From contig JAXHVD010000024.1 of NCBI GenBank assembly GCA_034189385.1, forward strand, positions 1-63,742: a DNA stretch of 63,742 nucleotides, given 5' to 3'. Every line of letters starts with the position of its first letter. Position 1 is the first letter of the stretch. The DNA is from Thermodesulfobacteriota bacterium (lineage in GTDB: Bacteria; Desulfobacterota; Desulfobacteria; Desulfobacterales; C00003060). This document shows positions 24,001 through 30,000 of this stretch, piece by piece. The position numbers were made by a program.

Positions 24001-27000
24001 AGAAAGATGTTTCTGCCCTTCCCACGCATGTCAAGGGCAAACCCTGCCTCGGAGAGCTTCTCATAAATGGCCGAGAAACCAGGACCGTCATTGTGTTGAA
24101 TGAGGCAGTTTTTCAGCTCATACCGATCAAGGAGACGTGTCAGTTCCCGGACATCTTCTGCCTTGGCCTGATCCAAACCGAAAATGATGCGAGACAGGTA
24201 GGAGGCAGAGCGGAGCTGCTTAAGGATGTTTTCAAAGACAGGACGATTCTCCCTGTTCGTATACTCCGATGCCAACAGGGGGACAATGAGCACGGCCTTT
24301 TTCCATTTTGACTGATGGCGGAGTTCTGCTTTTAAGGTAGGGTTGGATTTTGAAAGGAGATAAAAGGTCGTAATCTTAGTATGTTTCTGGGCAAAATTGG
24401 ACATAAATGATCTCCTGTCTGAGGCCCGTGTGTTCGGGTAACGCCTAGCATGAAAGCAGATGTTTGGTCAAGGGGGCGCAGGGAGGCGAGTATGACGTGG
24501 CTGGAGTAAGGCCCTAGCATTTCTAAAAGAATATCAGGATGTACGGACCAAAAAGGCTCCAACTGCCCACAGATATGACGGCCTTGACGGTAGAGGATCC
24601 AATTCCCCGGCCAAAGGGTCTCCTATGTGGGGCATTTCAGGGGCAAAATCTCCCTGTCCCGATGAGGGGACAGGGAGGTTACATCGCTGAAGCTGATGCC
24701 GTGGCCGCCCAGTGAAAAGTGCAGATAGACGAGTGCACGGCCGGACCGTGAGAACGGCCTAGTATACGTGGGGGTCGCTTTTTTCACTCAAGGAGTTAAA
24801 CCCCTCCCGCCACGAAAGCTTTCCGCTCTTTGTTACCCCTGGATTCACCTGCTCTATATCAATAATGGCTCCAGTGCTGGTCTGAACATAGGCCACGGAG
24901 CCTGCTTCACTGCCGGTGTGGAGATTTGGCGTTGTGGTATACCCTTTCCCAGCATAGACCTTTGGCAGGACGAAGCCGCTTCCGCCGTCCCTACCGGTCC
25001 AGTTGTTCTCCGCCGTCAACAAGGCCCCTTCCACATAGGCGGTGCCCGTTTTGTAGTAAAGGCCGTAGAGGTAACTAAACCCTTCGGAAGTACACAGATC
25101 GTTACTGGGAAGGTAGGTGGTAAAGGAAACGAGATGTCCCAAGACCGCCGCCTGCCCTAAGTTCCGCTCTCCGGTCTCGCTGTAATTGAGATACCAGCCG
25201 TCTTTGGCCCTCACCTCTTCTTCAAGGTCGGAAAAGTCGATTTTCCCGTCGCCGTTTTGGTCCATGACGGCCGGGCTTCCCCCAAGGATGGTCTCGTAAT
25301 CGTAAATCCGGATACCGGTCACGTTTCTCAGGGTGGATTCTTTTGCGCCCACCGTCCCATAGGTCATCTCATTGTTGAGATCCACCGGCTCTTTAATACC
25401 GTAATAGGCATTTTGATGGCTGAAATAGGGCTCTTCTCGATCCAGCCTGCCCCAGAGGCGGCCCGTGCCGAAATATAGCCAGATTCTGCCTTCATCATCC
25501 TTGGCCACCGACAAGGCGGTGTTGATGTGCTGGTGGTCCGCCCCTGTGGTGTTGGGATTGAAGAAAAGGGCTTTCGTCCAGAGGTTAGGATCTATCAGAG
25601 GGTTCCCGGTGTTATCTGTGGTCTTTATCCTAAAGACCCGGCCCTCCGCTCAGGCCCCGCAGCCGTCTGTCCCCACATAAATCGCTTCACCGCTCCAGGA
25701 CACTGCATCGCCAGGTCCTGGCTCAGGCGGGTCTGTGGTCAAGTCGAAATCGACTGCAACGGGATCGGATGCAAAGCTGTGGCCATCGAGGAGGAATTCC
25801 CTTTCCAGGCTCCCCGTCTTGGCATTCAAGACGTACAGACTGGACGTGCGGTTGCTGCCGCCCCAATTGGTCATGTGGATACCGTCATCTTTTCGGGTGG
25901 CCTCGTAATCGACCGGACCGGAGCCGATGACCACAAACCATGCGTTGCCCACGCGGATGGGGGTGGGGTTCGCCGTGGTAAAACCGAGGTTATCGTCGGT
26001 GAAGGTCCACAACAAGTCGGGAGGATGTTCCGGGTTGGTGATGTCTAGGGCAAAATAGGTGGACGTAAATTCAAGGTCGCACAGGCCGTCATGGTCTACA
26101 TCTACACCAATAGGGGCGCCGCCCAGGCGCATCCCACCAATCAGGACGGTGCCCCAGCCCTCTGGATGATCACTATCTGCCGAAAAGATCTTCGCATCAA
26201 AAATCCGGGGTTTCAAGTCCACAAAATAGACGTGGGTGTTTGCGCCCGTCAGTTCCTTGAGCCATTTCAAATGGGGAAGGATCGCATTCGGGACGTAGGC
26301 CCAGAGTTCGGTCCCCAATTCAAATGGTGTCTCCCCATCCATCTGTTTTACAAAGGCATGGTTTGCCTTGTCATAGAAGCCTCCATTGAAGGCATGGAGC
26401 ATCCCGTCATTAGCCCCTGCATAGACCACGATCCTGCGTTTTAGATACTGTTTCCTGAAGAGCTGATAAGAACGGTCCCTGTAAAGCATGTCATAGGCCT
26501 CCACAGGCTGGGAAACCACCGTGGGGGTGGAGTGGATAATGTCTCCCATCCGAAGAACCGTATCACCAGTGCCGTTGTCATCCATATCGAGGGTGCGATT
26601 TCTGTAGGGGATGTTCGAGCCCGTTTCCGCCAGGCCTTCCTGGCCCCGCACGAACTGAATGATGTTTTGAGCCTCTGTGATCATCTCCTCTTCCGTGAGG
26701 GCCACATGAGGCGTTCCAGGGTCGCCGTCGGAGTCATAGGTGAGGTAGGGGTTCAGGAAGAAATAGTTATCGTTCGCCAGGTCGTTTACAAAACCAGGGG
26801 TAAAGGGCATGATATCGCCGCCATACACGTTGGCCATGGATACCGGAGAGGTGGTATCGATCTTGTTGGTGAAGATGTACCGCTTCTGATCCAATGCCCC
26901 ATAGGTCCTCTGGCTGAGGACATCCATGTTCGGGTCAGAAAGCCAAGAGGTGGAGTCCCAGATGTATTTGAGGCCCATGATACCTACATCTTGTTCAGAA

Positions 27001-30000
27001 ACAGTCTTCTCTCCGGTGTCCGGATCATAGGTATACAGTTTTGCCAATGCCGTATCTCCGTCAAACTCAATGATGCGGTCCACACCGCGATCAAGCATGG
27101 CATTGCCATTGGTGTCTTCGCGCATACGGCCCTCCTCGTCAACAAAGAGGGCATGGACCTCACCAAACCAATTTACGGCGTCTCCGGACAGGTCGTAAAC
27201 CACAGGAAAGAATATGGCCTGATAGATGGCTCCTTCTCCTGCGCGGGATGCTGAGATGACAGATGCGGCAGAACCGGCCGCAGCACCGGCCCTGATATTA
27301 CTGAATACCCTCCTCAGCGTGTCTTCCAAATCCCCGGGATCAGCCGGGTTGTAAAGGGAGGTTCCTCCATTTTGGGCTGCACTGGCTAAGAGAATATCAG
27401 GGCTACACTCATCACCGCTTCCCGTGGAACGCAGGCTGCCGGCGGCCACGATGTGGGTGGTGATTTTTAGCTTGTCCTCGCCATCCATCTGTTCATTACC
27501 TACAGGATAGATGTCGCCGTTGTGGGCAAAATAGGTAAGATCGTCCAGAGAAGTGCTGCCGTCCAAGGAGCCGCAAAGGTTGCTGTCTCCGGCATCACCG
27601 TCATTCTTGCCAGCCTGCCCGATAAAGGCGGCCACCGTGGAATTGAGGTCTGCCGTTGAAGCGCCTTCAGTGATGATAAGGACATTGTTGCCTTGACACC
27701 AATATTGAATGGGGTCTGGATGGTCCGCATCCATGATGAAGTCATCAGCATCCAGCTTAAGAGCACTATTTTGCGTGTAATACCCTATGGCGGTGTACAT
27801 GGCCTCAGCCAGAGGGGTCCAGCAGGTGGCTTTGATGTCGTTTATGGCCGAGGCCAGATCGTCTGTGTGGACCTCGCCCTCGTCTATATAGGCAACGATC
27901 CTTCCGCCGTCTCGATTCTCCGAATCTGCGCAGTTGTAAAGGATCTGGGGGTCCGATTGATCACACTCGCTCTTGGAACCGTAGTCATTAAAGATCATGG
28001 CGCCGATGCGCAGGTCCTCGGAGAACTCATGAATCAGACCTGTGGGGGGATTCTCATGCTGGATGTACCCCTTGAGCACGGCTAAGGGCTCCCCCTGCTG
28101 GGCGGCCATGCCAGAGTCTATGAGTACGGCAGGGATGTTCCAGAACTCTCCGGTTTCACCTGCCTGGTCGCTTGGGTCAATGACCTCTGGGATCTCAAGC
28201 AACCCGCAATATTCCTGAAGGGCCGCCTCGATGCACGCATCCACACTGGCGTATCCGGCAGCATCCCAGCCTGCACCGATCCCGCCGGAGCACTCCCACT
28301 TCTTGCAACATTCAGGATCAGGCGCCACATGAGGCAGGCATTTGTTGGGGTTCCACCATTGCGTGCAGACACAGGTCGCATCCTCCCCCGGGTTCCAACA
28401 GCGGCCCACATAGCCGAAGGGGTTCGGGTTCGGCGCCGTATCCATGTCATCATCATAGATTCCAAAGCACACGTAACCCCGATCGTCCGTGGTGATATCC
28501 CACGGGTCTGTACCCCAATCTGTGTATATCTTCTCGCAGGAGTTGGCTACGCTACTGACCGGCCCTGCGCCTGGGGGCCATATGCCGTGCTTTGCCTGAT
28601 ACCAGCAGTTGTGAATGCCGTGGTTGAAGGCGGCGTGGGAGTCTGCCTCTTTGGTTTGGCCCCCTCCTGATTCATACCCCATACAGCCATCGATGTATTG
28701 CTTTAACGCGCCCTGGTTGGGAGAGGCCTTCTGAAGCTCTTCGATGGCCAGCTCACAGTCGCTGTGGTCAAAGCCTTGCTCGGTGACGGGAAATACCTCA
28801 ATGTAGGTCACATTGTAGCTCACCCAGTCCGTTATGCCGATGTCATCGGCCACACCGGTGCCGTTCGCGGTGCCGCCCGTGGCCGTAATGTACATGTTGC
28901 CCCCATCACTGACGATGCTGTTGGCCGGATAGACCGCTCCATCGGTCCATCGGCTAAGGGTGTAGGGGACCCAGTCGGTGACACCCGTGTCATCGGCCAC
29001 GCCGGTCCCGTTTGAGGTGCCGCCCGCGGCCGTGATAAAGTGTTCTAGACTATCTGAAACCACACTGCCGGCAGGATAGTAGGTGTTGTTTTTCCACACC
29101 GGGAAGGTTTGTTCCTCAGGCGGTCGTATGCCCAGGGTCAGGTAGTAGAGCGTGCCGGCGCCGGTATATACGTCCACTTGTTTGACAAGGATCTTTCCCA
29201 GGCAGCCCCTTGATTCCATCACGATCCGGCCGTTTGGGGCACCATAGGTGCCGGCTTCTTCATACTTGCCTCCGGTGAGGATCTTTTTCTGGATGTCCAG
29301 CTTTGAGGCCGTGGCCCAGTTAAGGAAATTGCCCTTTGTGAAAAAGGCGGTTACCGTATCTCCATCCACCTTGATATAGATATCAGTCTGACTATACGCC
29401 GTGCCCGCAGGGTTGGTCCATTCAGCCGGCGTGGCAGTGGTGGCCCAGTCCTGTGTTCTTTCCTCAAATTGTCCATTTGCCTGATTGTAGTAATACCAGT
29501 AGTCCCGATCAAAATACCCGGCATAGAAGTTGGCCGTGTCATAGGTGTCATCGTAGCAATAGCTCTGGTCGTCCACATAGGCGAGATCGTACATGCTGCC
29601 CGAATTATCGAGCATCAAAAGGAGATTTGCCTTGACGCTGCCCCCCAAAAAGGGTGGAAGGGCCAGGTAATCTCCCATGCTATAGCTACAATCGGCCCTG
29701 GCAAAGAGGGGGCAAAGGAGGGCCCACCATGAAACAATGAGCAAGCAGACGACAGCTTTTTTGTGTTTGCCCTTTCCCATGGACATGGCGTGTGTTAGGG
29801 TCTTCATCGTAGGTCTCCTTTATCGCTCGTTCTTTTTTGTATACTGCCAGAATACATCTATTGAGGTTCCTTCTCTTTAAGCCGTGGAGAGCCAACGGCA
29901 TCCGCTAGGAACGTTCTGTCTGAGGCATTGTTGATTGGGCACCAGCTAGAGCCCTCAGGCAATCCATGGGCCTACATGACATGTCTCCAGCGCAGCCTTA

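Follow-up and report, generated by a model that had tools for sequence, protein, structure and literature searches.

The window, a stretch of 63,742 nucleotides corresponding to positions 1 to 63,742 of contig JAXHVD010000024.1 from a Thermodesulfobacteriota bacterium, carries a type IV pilus operon in the order fimT-pilW-pilV-pilX-pilY1 (Table 1). The initial annotation had described a pilX/pilW/pilV-type operon; by profile we found all three of these genes, together with a fimT-type gene, upstream of pilY1, and homologues of the fimT-type gene are arranged likewise at loci L004, L041, L045 and L088-L090. We obtained the same reading of pilY1 as had been proposed, namely an otherwise open frame of 1,682 codons with a lone TGA, at residue 1386, in the translated context T-D-G-C-G-A-U-A-E-G. 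Under translation table 11 the gene is cut into two ORFs of 1,385 and 251 amino acids. The source genome contains another fimT-pilW-pilV-pilX-pilY1 cluster on contig C2, whose pilY1 is open and encodes 1,466 amino acids.

Table 1. Genes, residues and RNA features of the pilY1 locus, in window coordinates. Row counts refer to aligned subfamily members with (Sec) or without (Sec-less) selenocysteine; 13 of the 34 Sec rows are known only as proteins that end at the site, their codon being unseen.
Feature	Position	Strand	Remarks
fimT/fimU-type minor pilin, 200 aa	32155..32757	-	N-methyl motif PF07963; weak GspH/FimT-like NCBIfam matches
pilW minor pilin, 345 aa	31108..32145	-	PF07963 and PF16074 (PilW)
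pilV minor pilin, 160 aa	30629..31111	-	PF07963; TIGR02523 E 6e-10, below its cut-off
pilX minor pilin, 215 aa	29972..30619	-	PF14341 (PilX_N)
pilY1, 1,682 aa with TGA read through	24759..29807	-	variable Cys-rich N-terminal half and C-terminal beta-propeller
His1343, loop entering the Sec-bearing blade	25779..25781	-	His in 33/34 Sec rows, 7/23 Sec-less rows
Remodelled counterpart of the calcium loop in P. aeruginosa PilY1, residues 1353-1374	25686..25751	-	aligns with LADNNSDGVAD of 3HX6
Cys1383 (TGC) of C-x-x-U	25659..25661	-	Cys in 34/34 Sec rows, 7/23 Sec-less rows
In-frame TGA, predicted Sec1386	25650..25652	-	turn between two propeller strands
SECIS-type hairpin, 8-bp stem, GGA loop	25620..25638	-	+12 to +30 past the TGA, codons +5 to +10; identical in 19/19 loci
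His1425-Gln-His1427, loop leaving the Sec-bearing blade	25527..25535	-	His1425 in 21/21 Sec rows, 11/22 Sec-less rows
C-terminal K-S-G-K-L-S-W-R-E tail	24804..24830	-	3' of the TGA; position of the PilX-docking strand in other species

The N-terminus of the protein is basic and then hydrophobic, ending in A-R-A, and by eye residues 1-38 or so form a putative export signal. PF05567 scores 28.3 bits (cut-off 28.1), and a profile of the protein matches PDB 3HX6 with an E value of 5e-42. An AlphaFold2 model of residues 1050-1682 has a pLDDT of 86, and its best Foldseek match is again 3HX6 (E 6e-24, TM 0.59/0.74); a single-sequence model of residues 1270-1569 (pLDDT 41) was unusable. A phmmer search with the single PilY1 sequence returned no matches, and at E 0.1 sequence P0001 matched none of the 18,950 models of NCBIfam. 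For the N-terminal half we obtained weak leads only, to PF28373 (Atlas score 0.79) and CBM_5_12 (E 0.26). The translation, in which U is written as C, has 29 letters C; apart from this residue and Cys1383, there are 27 cysteines. In other species the C-terminal strand of PilY1 docks on PilX, and deletion of the tail abolishes piliation in two species (PMC12918778). By analogy, the tail of the window PilY1, in which Trp1666 is shared by all 63 homologues aligned, is a candidate PilX-docking strand. When PilX and the segment after the UGA were modelled as a complex, the score was 0.27 against a mark of 0.32, and we draw no conclusion from it.

Conservation of the in-frame TGA

Recurrence of the TGA across genomes had been reported from a pattern search. 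By other searches we found it in seven genomes (G000, G061, G062, G537, G541, G542 and G544), and among 69 genomes of the order of G062 it occurs in five of the seven that bear the subfamily. A DNA pattern permitting any codon at the site gave 18 metagenome matches, two of them non-coding; all 16 genic matches keep TGA. A sequencing error is ruled out by this recurrence in independent assemblies. In line with the unchanged read contig described earlier, a contig of run X1, possibly the source of the window, spans positions 25301-26076 at a depth of 41.8 and shows no difference; coverage of the site is lacking from runs X2-X4. A code-wide reassignment is likewise ruled out, because TGA is the commonest ordinary stop of the genome (524 of 1,350 long ORFs).

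Purifying selection acts on both sides of the codon, with dN/dS of 0.07-0.27 before and 0.10-0.31 after it in six of six pairs. Protein-level conservation extends through the 45 codons from the TGA to the annotated restart, which finish the same blade, and in database records the annotated starts of the downstream piece vary between lineages. We also observed that 26 of the 264 proteins fetched, the window's own among them, stop exactly at DGCG[A/T]. At locus L005, TGAs near the gene start fall upstream of its start codon.

The downstream hairpin and the decoding of UGA

The hairpin that follows the TGA reads GGTCTTTA-GGA-TAAAGACC, and 19 nt separate its loop from the TGA. The bSECIS model comprises a loop of 3-9 nt with an early G, a stem of 4-16 bp, a distance of 16-37 nt from the UGA and a minimum free energy of -7.5 kcal/mol or below (PMC13188914); the present hairpin, with its 3-nt loop, 8 bp and -8.6 to -11.4 kcal/mol, falls within each of these limits. 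The initial annotation had placed it where the hairpins of other selenoprotein genes of the genome lie, and we find that the hairpins of the genes for Fdh, MvhD, the GSU2204 family and other Sec genes have their loops at a matching position and likewise of the form G[GT]N.

That the hairpin is also coding sequence had been raised as a caveat, which is answered by its conservation at the nucleotide level and its absence from distant Sec-less sisters. Its six codons account for six of just nine columns that use a single codon among the 179 invariant-residue columns compared, and four-fold sites are near saturation, with a divergence of 0.55-0.72 between the main lineages. In the five TGA genomes of the order of G062 it is identical. 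By these comparisons, the nucleotide sequence of the hairpin is maintained irrespective of the peptide that it encodes. Among 6,912 synonymous encodings of RVFRIKT, just 0.06-0.13% fold equally well; plain shuffling of the 45-nt segment gave a modest result (z -2.09, with 5 of 200 shuffles as good). Distant Sec-less sisters lack the hairpin in three of three cases folded, their VFRIVT-type peptides giving -0.4 to -0.9 as against -8.6 kcal/mol, and in Sec-less G547 a single synonymous change breaks it. Sec-less G538, which has Leu (CTA) at the site, retains the entire hairpin, showing that it can outlive the TGA; with a four-fold difference of 0.22-0.27 to the nearest TGA loci, this genome fits a recent loss of Sec. 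The invariance of the hairpin among TGA loci means that no compensatory change is available as proof of pairing. The arrangement is more than a chance one: among the stops of long ORFs, a stem of at least 8 bp that carries a G[GT]N triloop and lies 16-37 nt past the codon followed 7 of 1,232 TGA, as against 1 of 759 TAA and 1 of 1,050 TAG stops.

The source genome encodes, as had been stated, SelA, SelB, SelD (with its own TGA) and tRNA-Sec. All four are present in G000 and G062, SelA occurs in all seven TGA genomes, and tRNA-Sec in five of the six besides G000, the exception being G542; in the 1.6-Mb genome G061, neither SelB nor SelD was found above cut-off. Because of the codon-level conservation, the purifying selection on both sides, the SECIS geometry and the Sec machinery, we are nearly certain that the UGA is decoded as selenocysteine at residue 1386, in the D-G-C-G-A-U motif of a surface loop of the propeller, as first proposed. 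To that account the present analysis adds the Sec-less sisters, the repeated losses and the histidines that may accompany Sec.

Sec-less relatives and the missing cysteine form

In the 23 Sec-less rows the Sec column holds Gly (14), Leu (4) or else Glu, Ser or Asn. Cys was found in none of these 23, in none of the 264 fetched proteins (as DGCxxC) and in none of the 18 DNA matches; Trp was found in no sister. The initial annotation had noted the lack of a Cys orthologue, and this holds throughout the fetched set, close orthologues carrying the residues just listed: the any-codon DNA pattern, the protein searches and a 50% representative library (best 150 of 4,715) yielded none, though deeper or as yet unsequenced members may carry one. 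Gly also stands at the site in the NCBI records P0170 and P0236; in a pair of JGI protein-level records (P0002/P0152) it possibly stems from the gene caller's code. Cys homologues now seem to exist for every known selenoprotein (PMC12013277). A Sec site with no Cys counterpart would be missed by the usual selenoprotein searches, and it also lacks the usual chemical confirmation.

Visualizing the subfamily as a 25-row tree, we observed that Sec-less forms nest within the Sec clade; a single clade for all Sec forms is rejected by the AU test (p ~5e-48). The trees were quick ones and FastTree ones, none of which includes L048 or L050; from one of them, 18 rows that were near-identical or belonged to the outgroup were omitted. 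The base is occupied by the long-branch Sec row P0059 when this is included, and by Sec-less rows in the 25-row tree without it, so that an origin of Sec from Gly and an origin of all Sec-less forms by loss are both compatible with the data. The motif shows a decay series of CGAU, CGAL, CVDL and SVDL. Since Sec-less orthologues persist in the SelA-bearing genomes G538, G547 and G231, the benefit of Sec is small or conditional. The subfamily was not found in 36 other genomes of the genus or, by pattern, in 400 of the phylum; it has no strong match in 26 other genomes of the class of G061, and it is found in 1 of 400 order genomes and 3 of 400 class genomes, all of them Sec-less.

Residues around the site

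The codon of Cys1383 is invariant in 17 of 17 loci. At the position of His1343, PilY1 proteins outside the subfamily have mostly Asn; His1427 is conserved throughout the subfamily. The correlation of histidine with Sec amounts to three or four independent pairs, never opposite and not significant (sign test, median p 0.5), and it is suggestive only that two of the histidines track Sec. Cysteines 704 and 1572 are not Sec-specific partners, because Sec and Sec-less groups alike retain them. Thr1313, also considered, was dropped, as some pairs run opposite. The calcium-loop equivalent reads D-F-D-L, an insertion and W-S-G-E; the canonical Dx(D/N)xDGxxD, which is common, not universal, is absent. 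From blade topology we infer that His, Cys and Sec lie close together.

Possible roles of the selenocysteine

We consider the best explanation overall, and probably the correct one, to be that Sec1386 belongs to an accessory soft-ligand Cys/Sec/His site on the propeller. Full-length PilY1 of 1,682 residues is almost certainly made in this Sec-rich anaerobe through a dedicated UGA recoding site with a SelB-type SECIS. It would then be exported and, to judge from other species, only the read-through product would be loaded on the tip of this operon's pili, because the PilX-docking tail follows the UGA. Cys1383 and Sec1386 would occupy the turn between strands B and C of a blade in which the remodelled calcium loop links strands A and B, with His1343, His1425 and His1427 in the flanking inter-blade loops, on the same face by standard propeller geometry. 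These residues may constitute a single site with two states, a selenenyl-sulfide and an open thiolate/selenolate, between which it would cycle, the open state binding a soft metal or a metal-sulfide surface, or exchanging with thiols or disulfides of a touched surface. To such a reversible chemical grip we assign somewhat under half of our overall confidence; use of the same site as a redox switch is the rival considered below. The Sec site would be dispensable for the pilus itself, having been lost several times, with the Cys and histidines decaying afterwards. A bolder proposal, which we offer tentatively, is that the site is selenium-specific, irreplaceable by Cys and possibly built on a former Gly codon, and that it lets the pilus grip metal-sulfide surfaces or partner cells of sulfidic sediments by reversible chemistry, or sense them. 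The sediment hosts so proposed include kin of sulfate reducers paired with methane-oxidising archaea.

It is conceivable, if unlikely, that the Cys-Sec pair senses redox state or sulfide and has no direct grip on a surface, its oxidation shifting the calcium-loop blade and biasing pilus extension versus retraction. The motif lies one strand from the extension/retraction switch loop of P. aeruginosa PilY1 (PMC13190605), the subfamily remodelled its calcium loop along with its gain of the C-x-x-U turn, and the part to which adhesion is usually ascribed, the N-terminal half, differs from one Sec-bearing member to another. However, standard geometry would put the C-x-x-U and calcium loops on opposite faces of the blade, and the calcium motif of the window PilY1 is non-canonical.

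An improbable alternative is that Sec forms only a structural Se-S staple across the turn, one that outlasts a disulfide in a reducing, sulfide-rich setting. Se-S bonds have a lower reduction potential, and Cys is gone in 16 of 23 Sec-less rows, as for a bonded pair; but the 27 other cysteines presumably cope as disulfides, the histidines are left unexplained, and C-x-x-C, one base away, would be expected often, with none in the 264 proteins. Very little speaks for a UGA that is mainly a selenium gate on expression, with this tip made only where Sec-tRNA is on hand, the cell otherwise switching to its second, Sec-free PilY1, and the Cys just capping the selenol: the docking tail 3' of the UGA, the open pilY1 on C2 and the amber read-through of the E. 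coli CS3 pilus genes, a precedent for stop-codon control (PMC1242214), would suit it, yet it requires neither the invariant C-G-A context nor the co-varying histidines, and gating is better taken as a side effect. We give hardly any weight to a leaky programmed stop at which Trp or Gly is inserted, a division of the gene into two proteins or a shared pseudogene, for which the Gly in 14 of 23 Sec-less rows and the annotated 251-residue ORF could be cited, against the absence of Trp from every sister, the 45 conserved codons, the differing downstream starts, the two-sided purifying selection, the textbook SECIS and the invariant Cys at -3.

Sec decoding of pilY1 would define a new selenoprotein family in the pilus-tip class, from uncultured bacteria of the sulfate-reducer type. 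By working rule, no selenoprotein is without a Cys homologue, and this family apparently breaks it. Filters based on Cys/TGA pairs and deep-Sep rest on this rule, and further such families may therefore be hidden. Databases contain these adhesins in shortened form, with 25 proteins that stop at the codon in addition to that of the window, and counts of PilY1 in sulfate reducers of sediments can be distorted as a result. The natural Sec, Leu and Gly variants offer a ready series on the role of selenium at the cell surface. If the accessory Cys/Sec/His site is indeed selenium-specific, this would be the first selenoprotein of a motility or adhesion organelle and an exception to Sec/Cys pairing, and a whole class of selenoproteins may then be discarded by the filters of present search tools.

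Comparison with known systems

The 2026 catalogue of 119 selenoprotein families contains no pilus protein; the BSepDB supplements and website and a groundwater candidate list could hold the family. With the C-x-x-U selenoproteins HdrA, MvhD, GrdA and the SelW-like proteins (PMC13188914, Table 1), the window PilY1 has in common the UGA, the C-x-x-U spacing, the Sec machinery and an in-frame downstream hairpin whose small loop, 16-37 nt from the codon, contains a G, but it is a structural surface protein with neither a Trx fold nor an enzyme domain. Envelope selenoproteins, namely the TonB-dependent receptor of FCYXU type (NF049945), the GSU2204 outer-membrane barrel (NF041027) and the ABC substrate-binding proteins SaoB/SaoX, are likewise exported and come from similar anaerobes, and the source genome also has a GSU2204-family gene with a TGA. 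In contrast to PilY1, they serve transport or electron transfer and none is part of a pilus; for the TonB receptor, Cys homologues have been reported.

The PilY1/PilC tip adhesins of type IVa pili (P. aeruginosa, 3HX6; PF05567) have the same propeller fold, the same place after fimU-pilW-pilV-pilX, a Cys-rich variable N-terminal half and a conserved C-terminal tail. In the window subfamily, however, the short GDLQGN turn has become D-G-C-G-A-U and three histidines have been gained; the window PilY1 has, moreover, a remodelled calcium loop and needs UGA recoding. A 2026 survey of PilY1 (PMC13190605) mentions selenium nowhere in its main text. One member of the subfamily is already known in the literature; it has C-G-A-L at the motif, Sec having been lost, and recoding goes unmentioned in the passages concerned. 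Its 90% cluster-mates nest among TGA-bearing sequences.

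A pilY1 frame interrupted by one conserved TGA

The pilY1 gene is a minus-strand frame of 1,682 codons with a single internal TGA, at residue 1386 in the context T-D-G-C-G-A-U-A-E-G-R-V-F-R-I-K-T; table 11 translation divides it into pieces of 1,385 and 251 aa, both present in databases. The fimT-, pilW-, pilV- and pilX-type genes lie 5' of it on the same strand, an order that related loci keep. The C-terminal 633 residues are predicted to form a PilY1 propeller (pLDDT 86), for which Foldseek returns the P. aeruginosa PilY1 structure 3HX6 as best match (E 6e-24), and a profile search of the product against 3HX6 gives E 5e-42; NCBIfam is without a model for this protein. 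Those of its relatives that carry a name are records of Deltaproteobacteria/Thermodesulfobacteriota and of Ca. Tharpella. The N-terminal halves vary between Sec-bearing members, and Sec is therefore a property of the propeller module.

We also observed, at PilY1 residues ~238-332, two similar repeats of ~48 residues (W..G/N..YPA.S.VSD...T..GGT.NGTGVADD.G.TDW) with a weak CBM_5_12 match (E 0.26). A giant surface protein of 5,398 aa is encoded ~7 kb from the operon; besides a Vps10-like stretch it has bacterial Ig-like/invasin D3 repeats, more than 20 in number. Contig C1 of the same genome (G000) carries more prepilin genes, among them a probable major pilin.

Coordinates of the features discussed
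Feature	Sequence	Positions	Strand
pilY1, full frame	window	29807-24759	-
Internal TGA of pilY1	window	25652-25650	-
Repeats in PilY1	window	28809-29108	-
Giant surface protein	window	1845-18041	+
Second fimT-pilW-pilV-pilX-pilY1 cluster	G000 C2	56490-63775	-
PhnD-type gene with TGA (L069)	G000 C1	285371-286324	+
HmcF/TmcB-like gene	G000 C63	21630-23141	
HmcF/TmcB-like gene	G000 C28	15821-17137	
HmcF/TmcB-like gene	G000 C1	31604-32947	
HmcF/TmcB-like gene	G000 C20	2021-3379	
Leu-type pilY1	L090 (G538 C12)	6186-11008	

A metagenome DNA pattern that left the codon at the site free gave 18 matches, comprising 16 pilY1 genes, every one with TGA, and two non-coding chance matches. A genome scan gave four loci, two with the TGA motif and two distant PilY1 without the loop, while in the order of G062, another TGA genome, the subfamily occurs in 7 of 69 genomes (five TGA, two Leu). 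Among 264 fetched proteins, 26 terminate exactly at D-G-C-G-[A/T], the window's own being one. The TGA loci share 59-92% protein identity, and dN/dS is 0.07-0.27 before the TGA and 0.10-0.31 after it (6/6 pairs). The initial annotation had described a single TGA in an otherwise open frame, shared by relatives with open flanks, and both descriptions are borne out.

Two sister loci look damaged and retain both TGA and hairpin: L039 has a stop 47 codons ahead of the TGA, and L092 (genome G537), in which other ORFs and N runs break pilY1 on the upstream side, reads C-G-G-U-P-R. In sequencing run X1, possibly the window's source, a second contig crosses the site (record 2; depth 5) with 89 differences over 776 nt, so a related strain or species co-occurs in the run.

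A SECIS-type hairpin and the machinery to read it

The hairpin GGTCTTTA-GGA-TAAAGACC starts 12 nt past the TGA and is identical in 19/19 loci (16 distinct windows), with neighbouring Gly, Ile, Ser and Thr codons varying. Across 17 TGA loci aligned by codon, whose four-fold sites diverge by 0.55-0.72 between main lineages, only 9 of 179 invariant-residue columns use a single codon; six of these are consecutive hairpin codons and a seventh is the Cys TGC. The encoding ranks in the best 0.06-0.13% of 6,912 synonymous encodings, and a comparable hairpin follows 2 of 1,809 TAA/TAG stops. Loop type and spacing are those of other Sec genes in G000, which upholds the earlier claim of a shared, similarly placed 8-bp hairpin, and the element conforms to the bSECIS model as presented in PMC13188914. 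The hairpin is absent from three distant sisters that lack Sec, whose peptides are of the VFRIVT type. Compensatory stem changes are absent among the TGA loci because the stem is invariant there. By these comparisons the hairpin is under selection as RNA.

G000 encodes SelA, SelB, SelD and tRNA-Sec, and many of its TGA-containing genes belong to known selenoprotein families (Fdh (2), HdrA, MvhD (2), GSU2204-family, RnfB, Grx and others). Among its ordinary stops, too, TGA ranks first, ending 524 of 1,350 long ORFs. SelA is found in 7/7 TGA genomes and tRNA-Sec in five of the six other than G000; in the small assembly G061, neither SelB nor SelD scores above cut-off. The view that Sec is not inserted at all we rate as highly improbable: almost certainly, SelB recognises the hairpin and would direct incorporation of Sec at residue 1386.

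Other TGA genes of G000 merit mention. L069 encodes a PhnD-type ABC substrate-binding protein (PF12974) whose frame contains a TGA within P-Y-U-T-V-G; the coding signal is strong on either side of the codon, and 22 nt beyond it comes a 6-bp hairpin. The P-Y-U-T-V-G motif is missing from Table 1 of PMC13188914, and the protein is therefore a possible further unlisted selenoprotein. Four HmcF/TmcB-like Fe-S proteins have E-U-G-H read-through motifs that fit the known 'UGH' Fe-S oxidoreductase family (our scan of these genes covered the C63, C1 and C20 copies). CoA-disulfide-reductase-like, DsrE-like and OS_HP2 genes also contain TGA.

Loss of Sec without replacement by Cys

The C-x-x-U turn is confined to a subfamily of 57 alignment rows, the turns of other PilY1 proteins being unrelated. 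The 23 Sec-less rows have Gly (14), Leu (4), Glu (2), Ser (1), Asn (1) or a gap (1) at the site and in no case Cys, and D-G-C-x-x-C is absent from all 264 fetched proteins; the caveat that no Cys-containing orthologue was found thus holds. On a tree built with the motif removed, six Sec-state changes are needed, at least four of them forced by well-supported branches, and a single clade of all Sec forms is rejected (p-AU 4.5e-48). Sec-less groups branch from within the TGA rows at three or more points, and one of these shows a decay series from C-G-A-U through C-G-A-L (CTA, hairpin intact) and C-V-D-L to S-V-D-L (TTA, hairpin broken). G538, with Leu, retains the whole hairpin, and in G547 one synonymous change disrupts it. 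Genomes with losses still carry SelA. The basal Sec-less rows may be losses or forms older than the gain of Sec, and the trees disagree.

The subfamily occurs in 1/37 genomes of the genus (G000 only) and in 4/401 of the class, a patchiness that suggests transfer or swapping of pilus-tip modules. In G538, the Leu-type pilY1 is followed by a same-strand 139-aa ORF and then by tRNA-Sec ~0.7 kb away, and possibly lies in an island at selC; G547 has the same ORF at its contig end, and TGA-bearing members of G538's order adjoin haem-synthesis-like genes instead.

The Cys/Sec/His site and its possible role

In the profile alignment the motif corresponds to the turn GDLQGN of P. aeruginosa PilY1, one strand past the calcium loop, whose equivalent is remodelled here. 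The predicted structure places it in the loop between strands 1375-1382 and 1391-1395 (local pLDDT ~82). Cys1383 is present in 34/34 Sec and 7/23 Sec-less rows, His1343 in 33/34 and 7/23, and His1425 in 21/21 and 11/22, counts that include near-identical rows and, among the 34 Sec rows, 13 known only from proteins that end at the site. His1427 is common to the whole subfamily; in PilY1 proteins outside it, position 1343 is mostly Asn and position 1425 is not His. On the tree the His-Sec pattern is never reversed, but with 3-4 independent pairs it is not significant. By standard propeller geometry, the histidines would occupy the loops that enter and leave the motif's blade and would share a face with the motif.

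What follows on the function of the site is inference. Cys, Sec and the histidines probably make up one accessory soft-ligand site, which would alternate between a selenenyl-sulfide and an open state; more tentatively, and with somewhat less than even confidence, we propose that it reversibly grips metal-sulfide or thiol-bearing surfaces. A redox switch for pilus extension and retraction, formed by the same Cys/Sec pair, seems unlikely to us, and a structural staple more unlikely still. A tail at the PilX-docking position is encoded downstream of the UGA, and Neisseria gonorrhoeae and Acinetobacter baylyi make no pili once this PilY1 tail is deleted (PMC12918778), from which we infer that only the read-through product should reach the pilus tip, so that tips of this operon would be loaded with it exclusively. 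As for the UGA being a selenium gate, we give this very little credence. The second cluster in G000 has an open pilY1 of 1,466 aa, and piliation overall therefore need not require selenium.

Comparison with known selenoproteins and PilY1 proteins

Table 1 of a 2026 review (PMC13188914) has 119 selenoprotein families, none a pilus or adhesin protein. BSepDB (PMC13326102) and SelCysML (PMC13745706) likewise name no pili or adhesins in their main texts, selenium goes unmentioned in the main text of the PilY1 survey PMC13190605, and our full-text literature search, within the articles it covers, returned no report of selenocysteine in PilY1 or of a pilus or adhesin selenoprotein. According to the deep-Sep paper (PMC12013277), Cys homologues now seem to exist for all known selenoproteins, and its filter can overlook those without them; absence of a Cys form sets the predicted PilY1 family apart as unusual. 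The nearest families catalogued in PMC13188914 are the envelope selenoproteins FCYXU TonB receptor, GSU2204 and SaoB/SaoX. Fold and operon mark the window's protein as a PilY1, and all the sequence tests except the Cys-pair one mark it as a selenoprotein. We regard the predicted family as well supported, and as real, in a protein class with no catalogued selenoprotein.
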